From: a virus
Lineage: Duplodnaviria; Heunggongvirae; Uroviricota; Caudoviricetes
Virus record (IMG/VR): IMGVR_UViG_2698536649_000010
Direction: 5' to 3' (one strand)
DNA length: 9,075 nucleotides
Shown: positions 84 through 7,458 of the stretch, one piece after another
Layout: the number at the start of each line of letters is the position of its first letter
Numbering within the stretch: position 1 is the stretch's first letter
Notes under the pieces: generated by a model
Told to the model about the DNA's origin: nothing
The model's database searches: none
Seen by the model: only the letters and a program-made list of their open reading frames with translations
Position numbers and translations under genes: made by a program

Positions 84-139
84 AAAAAGGGCGGACATCA
101 GTTCATGGGCAAACAGATGCCGCCAAACGTCACCAGAAA
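84..139 (-). ncRNA. dicF: DicF-like small RNA (cell-division inhibitor sRNA of Qin-type prophages)
   Basis: Minus-strand read (revcomp of + 84..139) is UUUCUGGUGACGUUUGGCGG...CCGCCCUUUUU. The 5' 20 nt and the 3' CCGCCCUUUUUAAAGUGAAUUUUGUGAUG context match E. coli K-12 DicF as I recall it; GC hairpin plus U5 run forms an intrinsic terminator. Same strand and downstream position relative to dicA as in K-12. The central ~25 nt differ from K-12. Confidence 0.65.
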
Positions 140-472
140 ATTGATAACAGAGGGCGTTGCAGCGGGGTTGTCACTTAAGCGTATGGTCAACCTGACAACC
201 CGGTGTCCTCAACGGGGAAGGAATAACCCCGCCATACTTACCGCTGCGCCATTTCGCGGAGTGCCACAACCGGAAGCGCACGGTCGACGAAAATTTAACG
301 ACAGGCTATCTATGAACCAGCAACCTCGCCGTGCGCTTTCGCGTTATGCTCTGACTTTTCAGAGAAATATCCTTTCAGTAAACTGTCAGTGCCGGATGTT
401 CACCCGTGTCCGGCGCACGCACTCCACTTCACCCGTGGAGAACTCCTTAATTACCAACCCTCAGGAGGGTGA

Positions 473-706
473 ATGTTAAAATCAACTCTTATTGCTAAAT
501 GCCTTTATCAAAATCGCATGGTAAGCAGCATTTCAATAGGCGAGTCTGCAGTTAAAAGTATTTTCGAAGAGTACTTTCCCGGGCATGATTTTAATAAATG
601 GAATACCAAATTACCGCCAGCAGTTTCAACGCGTATTCTGAAAGCAACCGAAAGAGCAAGTACAATTCGCGTTAACTATTTCATTAAAGATTTGTGGGAT
701 CTTTGA
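473..706 (+). CDS. hypothetical 77-aa protein, convergent to the dicB-type operon
   Basis: ATG at 473 preceded by a near-perfect SD (AGGAGG at 462..467); AT-rich coding sequence; protein-like composition. 3' end overlaps the 3' end of the minus-strand 135-aa gene by 23 nt. No homolog recognised. Confidence 0.3.
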   Translation: MLKSTLIAKCLYQNRMVSSISIGESAVKSIFEEYFPGHDFNKWNTKLPPAVSTRILKATERASTIRVNYFIKDLWDL

Positions 707-1091
707 TATCCACAGAGCCTAAAGTATGTGCATATGGATGTGCTATTATGCGCCCTCGCAGATTTGCATCATTTTCTAAATTCACTGAACGAAACAGGGC
801 ATCAACAAGGCTCTGTACAATGCAAAGGCAATCGAAGACTGTCGCCGTTTCTGTTTTGATTGATGAAAGAACATGGCCATTCACGCAAACAGAAATTACC
901 CGTTTATTAACATCGCTTTCCTGCTTTTGATTATCAGAACCATATAGCCCAGAAAAAGCATTGCGCACATTACGAACCATATTATCGATGGTTTCTTTTT
1001 CTGCGGTACTAAGGTCAAGAGTAGCCAGTTGTGAACGAACTATATTCGATGCCATTTCCTGTAATGGCGTTGGTAAATCTTTAAATTCCAT
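684..1091 (-). CDS. hypothetical 135-aa protein (operon cargo, unknown function)
   Basis: ATG at 1091 with GAGG SD about 7 nt upstream on the minus strand; lies 22 nt downstream of the preceding operon gene. No homolog recognised. Confidence 0.6.
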   Translation of the reverse strand: MEFKDLPTPLQEMASNIVRSQLATLDLSTAEKETIDNMVRNVRNAFSGLYGSDNQKQESDVNKRVISVCVNGHVLSSIKTETATVFDCLCIVQSLVDALFRSVNLENDANLRGRIIAHPYAHTLGSVDIKDPTNL

Positions 1092-1113
1092 TATTAGCCT
1101 CGTTGGTTAGCTA

Positions 1114-1332
1114 TTAACGTGGGTATGTAATCATTCTGGCAATGCTTAATGCCGCTGCTTTTTCCAGATTGGTGATATCCTGCTCCAGAGCGGACAGATT
1201 TTCAGCCTGCTTAGCCCTGGCTTCATTGGCCCATTTCAGGTCCTGCACCGCCTTAATTTTCTGGTGCATCCACTCATAAAGTTCATCATCGGTATAGTCT
1301 GGCGCGATGATGACGGGGTCTCGTTTCTGCAT
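1114..1332 (-). CDS. small prophage protein, 72 aa (YdfC-like by size and operon position)
   Basis: ATG at 1332 with strong SD (AAGGAG) 6 nt upstream on the minus strand. The 72-aa length and the position between dicA and dicF match ydfC of the K-12 dicB operon; sequence identity not verified from memory. Confidence 0.6.
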   Translation of the reverse strand: MQKRDPVIIAPDYTDDELYEWMHQKIKAVQDLKWANEARAKQAENLSALEQDITNLEKAAALSIARMITYPR

Positions 1333-1404
1333 GTCGGCTCCTTGTGGTTAGCGTTGCCTGCTTTTTAACCACGTCAGGCGAGGTGGTATCCTCTGAGGGG
1401 TCTG

Positions 1405-4713: not shown

Positions 4714-5448
4714 ATGGAAACCGTTTTTGACGCACTGAAAGCGATGGGAAAAGCCACGTCGGTATAGCTGGCTGCGCGACTTGATATCAGTCGTGAAGAA
4801 GTACTGAACGAGCTGTGGGAACTGAAAAAGGCTGGCTTCGTTGATAAAAGCGTATACACCTGGCGTGTGGCTGATAACAACGTTCAGCAGGAACAGCCAG
4901 CGCCAGAAGAAACCACCACGGCAACAGAAGCGAAAATCTCAGAGTGCGATTTAACCGCGACGATTGAACAACGCGGACCACAAACGGCGGATGAACTGGC
5001 TACGCTGTTCGGTACAACATCCCGCAAAGTTGCTTCAACGCTGGCAATGGCAATCAGCAAAGGTCGTCTGATTCGCGTAAACCAGAACGGTAAAATTCGT
5101 TACTGCATACCAGGTGATAATTTACCAGCAGAGCCGAAAGTTGAATCGGTAGCGGAAACCGATGGTAAAGCCTTTCCTCAGCCAGCCGGTGTTGCGTTAC
5201 CGGTACAGAAAGATGCAACACAGGAAGATATTAAAACAGAAACTGTGGCGGACATTGTGCAGTCGCTGCCATCGTTTACTGCAACGCGAGAAGATGATTT
5301 GATTTTGCCATCGCTGCATATGGCAAATCGCGAACTGCGTAGGGCGAAGAATCATGTCCAGAAGTGGGAGCGAGTCTGCGCCGCGCTGCGGGAGCTGAAC
5401 AAGCACCGGGATATGGTTGCCGGGATTTGTCGGAAGTCCGGGCAATGA
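4714..5448 (+). pseudogene. double winged-helix protein gene interrupted by an in-frame amber codon
   Basis: ATG at 4714 with GGAGG SD 8 nt upstream. Codon 18 is TAG (4765..4767) and the same frame continues open to 5448. The N-terminal repeat ([40 protein letters not shown]) and a second repeat ([38 protein letters not shown]) both look like winged-helix units. First possible restart downstream is GTG 4867. Confidence 0.55.
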
Positions 5449-6056: not shown

Positions 6057-6307
6057 TTATACTCATTGCATTGTCAGAAATAGTTATCCATTAAAGGCTG
6101 GCTATTCCAAACAGGATGTTGATTACAAAAATGTAATCAACATGTAAGGTTTATACTCTTCAATATGCGTATAATTTTCCTTATTTTGTTGACTTTAAAT
6201 AACAAGCTATGCACGAGGTAAAGTCGGATAAGTTTATCTGGATGTAATATATATTATTTGTAGTGTTTATAACTTTATTTCATGATAACCAATAAAAGGA
6301 GTTTTTT
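6057..6307 (+). promoter_or_regulatory. AT-rich upstream region of the binding-protein moron (promoter not resolved)
   Basis: Strongly AT-rich compared with flanking phage genes. Contains a 10-bp inverted repeat GTTGATTACA-AAAA-TGTAATCAAC (6118..6141), a TATAAT hexamer at 6170..6175, TTGACT at 6189..6194, and a strong SD AAGGAG at 6296..6301 before ATG 6308. Confidence 0.35.
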
Positions 6308-7066
6308 ATGAGGAACATAATGGCAGGTTTTTTAATATTCCTGTCTTCTGCTGCTTATGCTGATATCAATCTGTATGGTCCTGGTGGCCCGCATACAGCC
6401 TTGCTTGATGCAGCCAAACTTTATGCCGAAAAAACAGGTATTATAGTGAACGTTCATTACGGCCCACAGAACAAATGGAATGAAGATGCCAAAAAAAATG
6501 CAGATATCTTGTTTGGCGCATCAGAACAATCTGCTCTGGCTATCATTCGGGACCATAAAGACAGCTTCAGTGAAAAAGATATTCAGCCTCTTTATCTGCG
6601 AAAAAGTATTTTACTGGTAAAGAAAGGTAATCCTAAAAATATCCGGAGTATTGACGACCTGACCAGACCTGGGATTGGCGTAATTGTTAATGATGGTGGT
6701 GGTACCAGTAATACATCAGGCACTGGCGTCTGGGAAGATATTGCCGGACGTAAAGGGAATATAGAAACTGTCGCCGCAATCCGAAAAAATATTATTTTAT
6801 ATGCGCCCAATAGCGGAACTGCACGTAAGGCTCTTGAGAATCAGCCTGGAGCAGATGTCTGGATAACCTGGGCTGACTGGGCAGCCAGTAATCCAGAAAT
6901 TGGTGATGTCGTGGAAATAGCGCCAGACTACGTGATATGGCGTGATATGAACATTACAGTACGTCAGGATGCAAATGATGAAACCCGTCGATTTGCAGAA
7001 TGGCTACAAACCGATGAAGCGGCGCCTGCATTCAAAAAATATGGCTGGACCAGGAAAGGCACTTGA
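6308..7066 (+). CDS. secreted periplasmic substrate-binding protein, ModA-like fold; orphan (no transporter genes adjacent)
   Basis: 252-aa product with N-terminal signal peptide (MRNIMAGFLIFLSSAAYA then DINLYG). Resembles recalled E. coli ModA at several points (ADILFGASEQSA versus ADLFISADQKW; C-terminal RFAEWLQTDEAAPAFKKYGW versus AFYDYLKGPQAAEIFKRYGF). AT-rich codon usage. Confidence 0.8.
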   Translation: MRNIMAGFLIFLSSAAYADINLYGPGGPHTALLDAAKLYAEKTGIIVNVHYGPQNKWNEDAKKNADILFGASEQSALAIIRDHKDSFSEKDIQPLYLRKSILLVKKGNPKNIRSIDDLTRPGIGVIVNDGGGTSNTSGTGVWEDIAGRKGNIETVAAIRKNIILYAPNSGTARKALENQPGADVWITWADWAASNPEIGDVVEIAPDYVIWRDMNITVRQDANDETRRFAEWLQTDEAAPAFKKYGWTRKGT

Positions 7067-7249: not shown

Positions 7250-7302
7250 GCTGCGGGTGCTTGAGGCTATCTGCCTCGGGCATGAACACCAACGGCAGAT
7301 AG

Positions 7303-7353
7303 ATAAAAGCCCCACCCGACTATAAATCGAAGTGAGGCCCCTATATGCTCGTC
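7303..7353 (-). ncRNA. candidate Sok-like antisense RNA
   Basis: Minus-strand hairpin (7309..7339, stem with two G-U pairs) followed by a U-run (7308..7303). Possible promoter on the minus strand: -35 TTGACC (+7383..7388), 17-bp spacer, weak -10 CAATCT (+7360..7365). It is antisense to the hok leader around the mok start, where Sok acts in known hok/sok loci. Confidence 0.3.
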
Positions 7354-7401
7354 ACATATAGATTGCCTCTTACGGACCGAAAGGTCAAGGAGAAGCAGGC
7401 T

Positions 7402-7458
7402 ATGAAGCAGCAAAAGGCGATGTTAAAAGGCGGGGGAGAAATCCCTCGCCACCTCTGA
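7402..7458 (+). pseudogene. hok: truncated hok toxin ORF (18 codons; HokD-like N-terminus, transmembrane segment absent)
   Basis: Encodes MKQQKAMLKGGGEIPRHL then stop. The first 8 residues match recalled HokD/RelF (MKQQKAMLIALIVICLTV...); the hydrophobic helix and C-terminal domain are missing in all three frames before the terminator, implying an internal deletion of roughly 100 to 130 bp. Confidence 0.55.

Follow-up and report, generated by a model that had tools for sequence, protein, structure and literature searches.

Results

A two-gene cassette between ydfC and dicF

The stretch of DNA analysed here, called the window throughout, has a length of 9,075 nucleotides, and its leftward early operon carries two convergent genes between ydfC and the small-RNA gene dicF. 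The features of this region are as follows.

89..138, minus strand: probable variant copy of the small-RNA gene dicF, which follows the cassette in the leftward transcript
385..459, plus strand: promoter-like element of degenerate appearance, whose opposite strand is the start of the dicF leader
460..1093, no strand assigned: two-gene cassette of 634 bp, between the ydfC stop and the dicF 5' leader
463..468, plus strand: AGGAGG ribosome-binding site of the 77-aa gene, which is also the fixed right-hand boundary of alternative cassettes
473..706, plus strand: 77-aa gene for a small, soluble, all-helical protein (WP_000920491.1, phrog_10348)
684..706, no strand assigned: tail-to-tail overlap of 23 nt, encoding IKDPTNL-stop (tail of the 135-aa protein) opposite ...FIKDLWDL-stop (end of the 77-aa protein)
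684..1091, minus strand: 135-aa gene for a two-domain protein (WP_000394552.1, phrog_1363)
708..908, minus strand: "partner" domain (aa 62-128), delimited by alignment and profile search
927..1091, minus strand: N-terminal domain (aa 1-55, MEFKDLP...), found in E. coli prophage proteins with differing C-terminal domains
1114..1332, minus strand: ydfC, the upstream neighbour of the cassette in the leftward operon, from the RefSeq annotation of an identical region, about 97% identical to K-12 ydfC

Both ORFs that the initial annotation had described were found, each with an ATG start, and the AGGAGG motif it had pointed out lies 4 nt ahead of the ATG of the 77-aa gene. Its remark that K-12 has only ydfC ahead of dicF can be made sharper: pairwise alignment with K-12 Qin (NC_000913.3), which lacks the cassette, leaves one clean gap of 634 bp at window 460-1093, and this single extra block consists of exactly the two genes and the AGGAGG site, while ydfC and the dicF leader on its two sides align with K-12 Qin at about 97% identity. 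The AT-richness claimed for the block is borne out as well, with a GC content of 39.1% in the cassette against 53.3% in the left flank (139-459) and 48.4% in ydfC. We show that the two genes are genuine and protein-coding, that together they make up a discrete cassette (460-1093) which is exchanged horizontally, and that the operon around it, leftward and early (pL/dicBp-type), belongs to a lambdoid prophage of Shiga-toxin E. coli with ompW as its integration site. A count over 5426 complete E. coli genomes finds the cassette in 645-658 of them (about 12%), mainly STEC.

The downstream neighbour at 89-138 is a full-length match to the DicF family of Rfam (RF00039) and scores 43.5 bits (E = 7.9e-8), just short of the family's gathering score of 48; aligned with K-12 dicF, it agrees fully or almost fully over the 5' 22 nt and the terminator and departs from it in the central stem. 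The dicB gene lies outside the window, past its left end. A 124-aa ORF at 105-479 on the plus strand was treated as spurious, since it has no family match and covers dicF and its leader.

Conservation and fold of the 77-aa protein

In 14 diverse copies, the frame of the 77-aa gene contains no stop codon and shows a pN/pS of 0.32, and the remaining five frames contain 3-9 stops; third codon positions are variable in 70 of the 77 codons, as compared with 33 of the 77 for second positions. The stop-free frame, the low pN/pS and the third-position pattern rule out a chance or shadow ORF. The protein is kept at full length in about ten other enterobacterial genera at 55-72% identity, and nearly all of the 157 clusters of the family have a length of 74-78 aa. 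Within E. coli, the codon changes of the gene are 6 synonymous and 10 non-synonymous, a count that indicates only mild constraint there.

The predicted model of the 77-aa protein consists of five helices with a pLDDT of 97, and a Foldseek search against BFVD returned a single match, an uncharacterised member of the same family. Some distant members of the family have no partner domain beside them and some stand in unrelated co-directional operons; direct look-ups of such relatives led in one case to a plasmid-like context and in several others to short contigs on which the partner is absent, and a scan of viral contigs for further contexts of these relatives found none. Because distant members exist without a partner, the 77-aa protein may be able to function alone.

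The initial annotation had proposed the 135-aa gene as unrecognised, undescribed cargo and had named profile searches and structure prediction of both proteins as a check. The outcome agrees with it, for neither protein matches a characterised family. Pfam, NCBIfam and PADLOC gave zero matches for the 77-aa protein, the 135-aa protein, the stand-alone partner and the alternative alleles; PDB sequence-profile searches were empty for both proteins; 71 diverse members of the 77-aa family had no consistent match in Pfam; and none of the alleles showed a recognisable toxin domain or a domain linked to secretion. Membership was found in PHROGs, namely in phrog_10348 for the 77-aa protein (E = 1e-47), phrog_1363 for the 135-aa protein (4.8e-47) and phrog_23433 for the partner domain (2e-14), which are labelled there as of "unknown function", and all sources name both proteins "hypothetical". 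No mention of the protein accessions was found in the literature, and the dicBF papers describe neither the cassette nor antisense transcription of the region.

Two domains in the 135-aa protein

The AlphaFold2 model of the 135-aa protein, with a pLDDT of 65.8, comprises a helical hairpin, a disordered linker, and a beta-hairpin with two helices. Such a poorly modelled partner with disordered ends is as would be expected for a binder that folds on its target. The N-terminal domain is the only part common to the homologues of 124, 126, 133, 201, 208 and 212 aa, with the proviso that the 201-aa variants also keep the partner domain, joined to a C-terminal extension, the homology ending exactly where the 23-nt overlap lies, at ..GSVD.

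The partner domain, with the motif VNG..T.TAVAADY..AL...SLE.EAN.SGKTI.H, occurs in other genera as a stand-alone protein of 75-80 aa, which is convergent to the 77-aa gene (L002-L008) and often encoded by the first gene after pL. Its pN/pS is 0.51, so that the substitution patterns point to purifying selection on both the 77-aa gene and the partner domain.

The two genes are inherited as a unit

That the two genes may form a module had been suggested in the initial annotation, with co-occurrence in other prophages as a means to check it. Both domains are present in 93 of the fetched loci, and among the lambdoid ones no intact 77/78-aa gene lacks a partner-domain gene that converges on it and overlaps it. 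Related pairs are present in prophages of Klebsiella, Serratia, Citrobacter, Proteus and other genera, and the adjacency and orientation of the pair hold down to about 35% protein identity, across differing flanking genes and in many genera. The overlap in intact pairs is 23 nt, or 26 nt with a 78-aa small protein, the exception being a divergent Citrobacter pair with 51 nt. In addition, the distance matrices of the two proteins correlate with r = 0.87 over all pairs and r = 0.62 outside E. coli, and none of 2000 permutations gave a value as high; the mean identity is 69% for the 77-aa protein and 52% for the partner. What appears against K-12 as one cassette is co-inherited across genera with its overlap of 23-26 nt, and the module proposal is upheld to this extent. 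We show that the partner domain (aa 62-128) and the 77-aa protein together are the functional core, and that lambdoid prophages in many genera of enterobacteria have inherited the two as one unit. The co-inheritance of overlapping genes can, however, stem from physical linkage alone.

Within the overlap, the tail of the 135-aa protein is predicted to be disordered and the end of the 77-aa protein is conserved; the leftward gene takes its stop codon from the strand complementary to ATT AAA, the conserved codons of I71-K72 in the 77-aa gene. Both subtypes of the partner are found with both kinds of 3' end, which means that the partner domain is separable from the 77-aa gene. Loss of the 77-aa gene with retention of the 135-aa gene, which the initial annotation would have taken as evidence against its proposal, is seen only at the margin: the 201-aa variant lacks the 77-aa gene and bears a different, 63-aa convergent gene in its place, and in rare alleles (L090, L092, L012) the 77-aa gene is frameshifted and the leftward gene intact. 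A complementarity of charge between the two proteins was considered, with values of +3.6 and -4.2 in the window, but was rejected as the pattern is not conserved across the families.

A polymorphic slot at the position of sieB

The slot of the cassette in E. coli combines a shared N-terminal domain with variable C-terminal domains and with unrelated convergent small genes of 63, 69, 73 and 77 aa. Proteins that join the N-terminal domain to different C-terminal domains have 124, 126, 133, 135, 201 and 208 aa, and four of the five alleles examined possess a different, intact convergent small gene (63, 69, 73 or 77 aa). In the fifth allele, that of the 133-aa protein, the small ORF is apparently frameshifted and partially matches a 92-aa family. 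The ribosome-binding site CTCAGGAGGGTGAA(A)ATG is identical ahead of the unrelated 63-aa and 73-aa genes of other alleles.

In the Rac prophage of K-12 the order of genes is racR<-ydaG<-ydaF<- ->sieB <-kilS<-kilR, with a tail-to-tail overlap of 4 nt between sieB and ydaF and with homology of kilS to the 3' end of dicF. The order in the window is 135aa<- ->77aa <-dicF (<-dicB), that is, a rightward gene lies in a leftward early operon just as sieB does in Rac. The cassette locus is shown to occupy the slot that in K-12 Rac belongs to sieB.

Facing promoter-like elements and predicted antisense transcription

Upstream of the 77-aa gene in other genera stands a promoter-like element, TGnTAtcTT, of which exactly TG, TA and the final T are invariant in 20 copies and which is followed by the ATG after 30-33 nt; the same element stands also ahead of two other, unrelated rightward genes within leftward operons. 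In the window, the corresponding stretch at 385..459 retains by alignment the GCCGG/CCGGC inverted repeat and TTCACC, with AGAACT instead of TAtcTT as its -10. It has an RNA fold z of -2.7 and is common to K-12 despite the absence of the cassette there. A search of the plus strand at 100-472 found neither TGnTAnnnT nor a consensus site, and the promoter of the 77-aa gene in the E. coli copy looks degenerate. Because of this degenerate -10, expression of the 77-aa protein from the E. coli copy may be weak or driven from elsewhere.

On the other strand, the partner gene lies directly 3' of a strong pL-like promoter adjoining a cI-type repressor gene in L006 (TTGACC-18-TATTAT) and L115. The facing promoters have an overlap of about 520 bp with no terminator between them, and any leftward transcript that reaches dicF crosses the entire 77-aa gene in antisense. 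A DicF-like small RNA beside the Klebsiella module L006, suggested by reading the sequence by eye, was rejected, as only a terminator-like hairpin is there; Rfam did not find DicF in seven loci outside E. coli.

Discussion

A possible lysogen-side protein and its early antagonist

A host-takeover or exclusion role of the cassette can be proposed, and gains support from the fact that its slot holds sieB in K-12 Rac. The P22 sieB gene is expressed from the prophage and aborts related phages, and P22 itself is spared by means of the Esc protein and the antisense RNA sas (PMC10883804, PMC12197685, PMC7067206); more generally, a position antisense to lytic genes is typical of accessory (moron) loci (PMC7067206). 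Since the cassette recurs in enterobacterial temperate phages and occupies the slot of sieB, it is a good candidate for phage-versus-phage competition.

As the most likely mechanism, though only tentatively, we consider a small lysogen-side protein that is produced from the strand opposing pL and has its cognate antagonist in an early-lytic product. The 77-aa protein would be the product of the lysogen side. Outside E. coli its own conserved extended -10 promoter would fire against pL, and owing to this promoter the protein could be made while pL is repressed; it might work against other phages as an accessory factor or one of the exclusion type. Its cognate antagonist would be the leftward protein, which would be made right after induction or infection and would bind the 77-aa protein through the partner domain, to which the exchangeable N-terminal domain, a helical hairpin here and a ClpX-type zinc finger elsewhere, may add oligomerisation or delivery. 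At the same time, since the genes are convergent with no terminator between them, transcription from pL would run antisense over the whole 77-aa gene and could shut it down. In this manner the resident phage would escape its own factor and a phage with a non-cognate allele would not.

A wider proposal, conceivable yet somewhat doubtful, is that the early-left operons of lambdoid phages harbour a polymorphic class of convergent pairs that had not been recognised before, the cassette being one of its alleles. Each pair would join a small protein of the lysogen side to a cognate antagonist of the early lytic phase, and the pairs would decide which related phages grow in a lysogen, so that exclusion would go with an escape specific to the allele; the class would have new folds and a portable extended -10 module and would be distributed over Enterobacterales including most O157:H7. 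If the two genes do work as an exclusion/escape pair, they would form a new, compact factor governing which of the lambdoid phages, Stx phages among them, can pass from strain to strain, and the idea of sieB/Esc/sas would be extended to a general polymorphic locus. Whatever its function, the locus offers two uncharacterised protein families, one of them with a very confident fold and no solved relative, a conserved promoter module for genes set against the early-left operon, and an obligatory antisense passage for all transcripts that make DicF and DicB in these prophages.

Other readings of the locus

The polarity of the pair could be the reverse, although we regard this as unlikely. The variable C-terminal domain of the leftward early protein would then be a pL-made host-takeover effector or toxin and the small protein its cognate antidote, which would be made while pL is silent and would counter leaky expression or the same effector from an incoming related phage, so that the locus would be akin to polymorphic toxin-immunity loci or to toxin-antitoxin pairs coupled to lysis. 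The combination of a conserved N-terminal domain with C-terminal domains and adjacent small genes that vary is indeed the hallmark of polymorphic effector/immunity loci, yet a toxin domain is recognised in no allele. The opposite orientations, which entail opposite expression programmes, would suit an antidote, and the operon already holds the toxic genes dicF and dicB (PMC5069750); but it is the 77-aa protein that is better conserved (69% against 52%) and better folded, and its distant members without a partner domain would be unusual for an antidote. Moreover, the alleles L090, L092 and L012, with 77-aa gene frameshifted and leftward gene intact, are the wrong way round for a leftward toxin.

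To a similarly low probability we assign the reading of the two genes as independent neighbours, in which the 77-aa gene would be a self-contained moron at the 3' end of an early gene, the proteins would not interact, and the overlap would result only from the leftward ORF reading to the first stop in the antisense of the conserved FIKDLW codons. The adjacency and orientation kept to about 35% identity amid otherwise mosaic phage genomes argue against it, as does the retention of the partner gene whether it stands alone or is joined to at least three different N-terminal domains. Recombination cannot separate overlapping genes, and several details of the locus fit independence: the leftward protein ends, within the overlap, in a short and variable tail that is predicted to be disordered, its stop is fixed by the conserved ATT AAA codons of the 77-aa gene, the partner domain also occurs with a different 3' module, and distant 77-aa members are found in unrelated co-directional operons.

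Very unlikely, in our judgement, is a role mainly at the level of RNA, in which rightward transcription would chiefly hold back the leftward operon, dicF and dicB included, by antisense action or transcriptional interference, the protein being secondary. Strong purifying selection on the protein, its fixed length of 77 aa and its very confident fold speak against such a role, and so does the retention of the ORF and a strong ribosome-binding site in about 650 genomes in spite of the degenerate look of the promoter in the window; on its side are the terminator-free overlap of about 520 bp between facing promoters, the antisense passage of all dicF-reaching leftward transcripts over the 77-aa gene, and the precedents of sas/sieB and OOP/cII (PMC12197685, PMC7067206). 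The position of the 77-aa ORF on the strand opposite the leftward operon, the AT-rich DNA and the lack of an evident promoter in the window might suggest that it does not code for protein and is either a shadow of that operon or an artefact of annotation. This is virtually inconceivable, being already refuted by the conservation of the protein at full length in about ten genera, the pN/pS of 0.32 and the 157 clusters.

Comparison with known systems

Several known systems share part of the features of the cassette. One that corresponds in position is the sieB locus of lambda, P22 and Rac; a phage evades the SieB that it encodes by means of a protein antagonist and an antisense RNA (PMC10883804, PMC12197685). 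SieB has no sequence or family relationship to the cassette proteins in Pfam, NCBIfam or PADLOC, the only PHROG match of the 77-aa protein being phrog_10348; SieB has about 160-190 aa (162 aa in Rac), whereas the small protein of the cassette has 77 aa and is soluble and all-helical; and the antagonist of SieB is an internal translation product of the same gene, whereas the putative antagonist here is encoded by a separate convergent gene.

The CdiA-CT/CdiI and Rhs-CT/RhsI loci, like the cassette, have a conserved N-terminal region and interchangeable C-terminal domains, each with its own small adjacent gene, and in such polymorphic effector/immunity loci the conserved flanks permit the exchange of cassettes, as in the E. 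coli slot. In contrast to them, the proteins of the cassette type are tiny (124-212 aa), cytoplasmic, encoded in a phage early operon and free of secretion or toxin domains, and the small gene is convergent, while the immunity gene of polymorphic loci lies downstream in the same orientation. For the PHROG clusters phrog_10348 and phrog_1363/phrog_23433 the cassette proteins are direct members, but the clusters are silent on the pairing, the overlap and the polymorphic locus.

Type I toxin-antitoxin systems (par/fst, txpA/ratA) consist of a hydrophobic peptide and a non-coding antisense RNA, unlike the cassette, which encodes conserved, soluble-looking proteins on both strands (GRAVY -0.13 and -0.17). 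Type II toxin-antitoxin systems such as paaA2-parE are likewise prophage-borne cargo and, like the cassette, comprise two small co-inherited proteins of which one is well folded and one partly disordered; they form, however, a co-directional autoregulated operon, whereas the cassette genes are convergent with a 23-nt 3' overlap conserved across genera, and neither cassette protein matches any toxin or antitoxin family. As a separate observation, paaA2-parE adjoins the repressor in the sister prophages L095 and L103.

A discrete two-gene cassette in the early-left operon

The window corresponds to the early part of a lambdoid prophage whose host is a Shiga-toxin-producing E. coli. Chromosomes of O157:H7, O145, O26 and O103 show 100% identity to window 400-1150, and in the sister strain PV15-279 the prophage adjoins an integrase gene and an ompW fragment; the deposited phage records having the gene are the 'PPompW' prophages and Escherichia phage Evi. 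The features of the leftward operon, in its reading order, are listed below.

Features of the leftward operon and the embedded gene
1968-2375, leftward operon: dicA-like repressor gene
Between the dicA-like repressor gene and ydfC, leftward operon: 99-aa ORF
1114-1332, leftward operon, followed by the 135-aa gene: ydfC
684-1091, minus strand: 135-aa gene (WP_000394552.1)
473-706, plus strand: 77-aa gene (WP_000920491.1)
89-138, minus strand: dicF (Rfam 43.5 bits; gathering score 48)
Past dicF, outside the window: dicB

Both ORFs proposed in the initial annotation were confirmed, with an overlap of 23 nt, and so were the strong ribosome-binding site (AGGAGG at 463-468, the ATG 4 nt further on) and the AT-richness of the block, since 460-1093 has 39.1% GC versus 53.3% and 48.4% in the flanks. 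Alignment with the K-12 prophage Qin bears out the statement that K-12 has only ydfC before dicF: the window contains a single clean extra block, 460-1093, holding exactly the two genes and the AGGAGG site, and the bordering ydfC and dicF leader are ~97% identical to those of Qin. The cassette is a discrete one, with two genuine genes, and is carried by 645-658 of 5426 complete E. coli genomes. The dicF copy itself agrees with K-12 dicF in its 5' 22 nt and terminator and has a different central stem-loop.

RefSeq annotates both products as hypothetical proteins, as does every other source. That neither had been recognised on first reading proved well founded, with zero matches in Pfam, NCBIfam and PADLOC to the two proteins or any tested relative, and a literature search gave no paper citing either accession. 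The module is real and widespread, is built from uncharacterised protein families and is untouched in the literature searched.

The two proteins

The 77-aa ORF was considered as a shadow ORF, which was rejected on its full-length homologues, its stop-free frame and a pN/pS of 0.32. The homologues, with 55-72% identity, are found in Klebsiella, Raoultella, Serratia, Yersinia, Dickeya, Xenorhabdus, Morganella and Salmonella, with further full-length ones in Proteus and Photorhabdus, and by profile search the family comprises 157 clusters (cut at 50% identity), few of them outside 74-78 aa. Among 14 diverse copies, which also gave the pN/pS value, the frame has zero stops and each of the other five frames 3-9, and variable positions number 70 of 77 at the third codon position against 33 of 77 at the second. 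Within E. coli, 6 codon changes are synonymous and 10 non-synonymous, a sign of no more than mild constraint there. A distant member (45% identity) lies on metagenome contigs with Rep3 and Tn3 genes (L109-L111), in a co-directional small-gene operon directly before an FRG-domain protein; this context looks plasmid-like, and the partner domain described below is absent from it.

The 135-aa protein belongs to phrog_1363. Its structure model, of lower confidence (pLDDT 65.8), starts with a helical hairpin at the N-terminus (residues 8-50); a disordered linker (49-62) leads from it to a C-terminal domain in which a beta-hairpin is combined with two helices and the tail is disordered. According to profile search, Klebsiella, Serratia, Dickeya, Hafnia, Citrobacter, Enterobacter and Leclercia have this C-terminal part, the partner domain, as a stand-alone protein (75-80 aa), and elsewhere it is joined to other N-terminal domains such as a ClpX-type zinc finger. 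Its pN/pS of 0.51 reflects purifying selection, weaker than that on the 77-aa gene.

Inheritance of the pair across genera

The suggestion that the genes might form a two-gene module gains support from the recurrence of the same convergent overlapping pair in prophages of other genera. In Serratia and Klebsiella the 77-aa gene likewise lies opposite to the leftward early operon. A gene of 77-79 aa, whose product is homologous to residues 62-135 of the 135-aa protein, runs into its 3' end, and here too the tails share exactly 23 nt. Each intact lambdoid-type 77/78-aa gene fetched faces a convergent partner-domain gene with which it shares 23 or 26 nt, the zinc-finger fusion gene included, and a Citrobacter pair diverged to ~35% identity overlaps by 51 nt. 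The overlap is constant because the stop TAA of the leftward ORF lies opposite the codons ATT AAA of the nearly invariant I71-K72 of the 77-aa gene. Both domains occur together in 93 loci; the pairwise-identity matrices of the two proteins correlate with r = 0.87 overall and 0.62 outside E. coli, a level reached in 0 of 2000 permutations.

The initial annotation had held against its own proposal any loss or disruption of the 77-aa gene beside a conserved leftward gene. Rare alleles of this kind exist: in loci L090 and L092 and in one of Photorhabdus (L012) the 77-aa gene is frameshifted and the leftward gene intact. Locus L015 shows the reverse decay, with the N-terminal domain of the leftward gene frameshifted and the 77-aa gene intact. 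Across genera, the pair is passed on together as one unit.

Alternative cassettes at the position of sieB in Rac

The first ~55 residues of the 135-aa protein (MEFKDLP...) recur in proteins of 124, 126, 133, 201, 208 and 212 aa from E. coli and Salmonella prophages, with unrelated C-terminal domains. All such genes examined occupy the same slot before dicF/dicB, and each has a convergent small ORF touching or overlapping its 3' end. The alternative intact small genes, of 63, 69 and 73 aa, have no relation to each other or to the 77-aa protein, and at least two of them start directly after the same CTCAGGAGGGTGAA(A)ATG; the small ORF of the 133-aa allele is apparently frameshifted, its match being to just a portion of a 92-aa family. 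In the 201-aa variant, colinearity with the 135-aa protein extends as far as ..GSVD (residue 128), and there follow a 73-residue extension and a convergent 63-aa gene overlapping by 23 nt. By this comparison the locus is polymorphic in E. coli: its flanks are conserved, and between them a C-terminal domain and its small gene form one interchangeable unit.

The alternative cassettes filling the slot of 460-1093 in these prophages (L094-L107) encode proteins of 124-212 aa, all of unknown function in PHROGs, next to a small ORF that is either intact (63, 69, 73 or 77 aa) or apparently frameshifted (64-92 aa), and some C-terminal sub-modules are shuffled among alleles (matches to phrog_2982 and phrog_15476).

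The K-12 prophage Rac has in this slot the order racR<-ydaG<-ydaF<- ->sieB <-kilS<-kilR, where sieB converges on ydaF with a 4-nt overlap and kilS shows homology to the 3' end of dicF, so that the cassette is positionally equivalent to sieB.

Opposing promoters

In a Klebsiella prophage (L006) the partner gene directly follows a leftward promoter that is strong (TTGACC-18-TATTAT), has operator-like inverted repeats on either side and is located just past the terminator of a cI-type repressor gene, and in L115 a promoter-like site precedes the zinc-finger fusion gene. The partner gene therefore comes first among the early-left genes of those phages, and its place early in the leftward operon is established.

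Upstream of the 77-aa gene, an element of ~45 nt is common to all 13 non-E. coli loci. Alignment of 20 copies leaves as invariant columns the TG, the TA and the final T of TGnTAtcTT, at 30-33 nt from the ATG, which is the pattern of a predicted extended -10 promoter. Because the element is also found before two further rightward genes, unrelated ones that likewise lie inside leftward operons, it is a portable promoter module firing against pL, and outside E. coli the small gene has a conserved opposing promoter. In two Citrobacter prophages (L097/L098, ~4930-5373) a second rightward gene within the leftward operon, of 139-147 aa and unknown function (phrog_5286), has the same promoter-like element upstream as the 77-aa family gene.

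In the non-E. coli phages the two promoters oppose each other over ~520 bp with no terminator between them. From this layout we infer mutually exclusive expression, with the small gene on under pL repression and the partner once pL fires.

The counterpart of the element in the window (385-459) is degenerate, with AGAACT as its -10; it retains the inverted repeat with compensatory changes (GCCGG/CCGGC) and the TTCACC, which is also duplicated. The dicF leader starts with this stretch, which K-12 has as well, although it lacks the cassette. Neither a consensus nor an extended -10 site was found upstream of the window's 77-aa gene, and a promoter for this copy is doubtful; the ORF and its strong ribosome-binding site are retained in ~650 genomes despite the degenerate promoter. 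The repeat, GCCTG-N14-16-CAGGC, surrounds the -35 region of the element (window 385-445, alignment A7), and both arms change together, to GCCGG/CCGGC, in the window and in a Serratia locus (L002); it could be an operator for a dimeric regulator or an RNA hairpin.

Possible function

We rate the cassette as prophage accessory cargo in the early-left operon, with a function assigned wholly by inference. A position antisense to lytic genes is typical of accessory loci (PMC7067206). SieB, expressed from the prophage, aborts related superinfecting phages and spares its own phage type (PMC10883804), and P22 escapes it by the sas antisense RNA and the Esc protein (PMC12197685, PMC7067206). Our leading reading, a tentative one, is that the 77-aa protein would be an accessory factor on the lysogen side, probably of the exclusion type, that the leftward protein may act through its partner domain as an immediate-early cognate antagonist, and that convergent transcription would add an RNA-level switch.

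The reverse polarity, an early leftward effector with the small protein as lysogen-side antidote, seems unlikely: the small protein is the better conserved and better folded of the two and is found partnerless in distant contexts, and decayed alleles lacking a working small gene keep the leftward gene. We give as little weight to unrelated neighbours kept together by the overlap alone, a reading in line with the 201-aa variants, which pair the partner domain with a different 3' module. That the cassette acts mainly by antisense or interference on dicF/dicB expression is quite improbable.

Under the exclusion-type reading, the cassette would at most work like sieB/Esc/sas, and it resembles polymorphic effector/immunity loci in architecture. 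It lies outside both families, since its sequence, size, orientation and domain content do not agree with membership, and it differs from type I and type II toxin-antitoxin systems in gene organisation and family.

Other features of the window

At 1352-1392 (+) the promoter-like element occurs in an intact copy, in a region inside and just left of the annotated leftward ORF 1405-1704/1761, with an exact match to CAGGCGAGGTGGTATCCT at 1375-1392 (+; 0.04 expected by chance). The ATG following at 1425 (+) opens a 13-codon ORF, MNTIKFSCPECGG* (region 1352-1466). In five other E. coli prophages (L021, L023, L028, L035, L051) the same ORF has 66 aa with a four-cysteine zinc ribbon and GAA at the codon that is TAA in the window, which thus carries a putative nonsense-mutated rightward zinc-ribbon gene, antisense within the annotated 99-aa 'hypothetical' gene.

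Rfam strongly matches 7255-7404 (+) to the antitoxin RNA sok (103.9 bits); this corresponds to the type I toxin-antitoxin locus hokD in the annotation of the identical prophage. PV15-279 has an IS1203 insertion in the replication region, and the ~1.3 kb offset between its coordinates and those of the window suggests that the window lacks it. A 252-aa ORF at 6308-7066 (+), with a signal-peptide-like N-terminus and very AT-rich DNA nearby (27-35% GC at 6100-6300), appears from its identical length (759 nt) to be the sister strain's gene for the AcfC-family adhesin Paa, and looks like separate accessory cargo of the rightward region.
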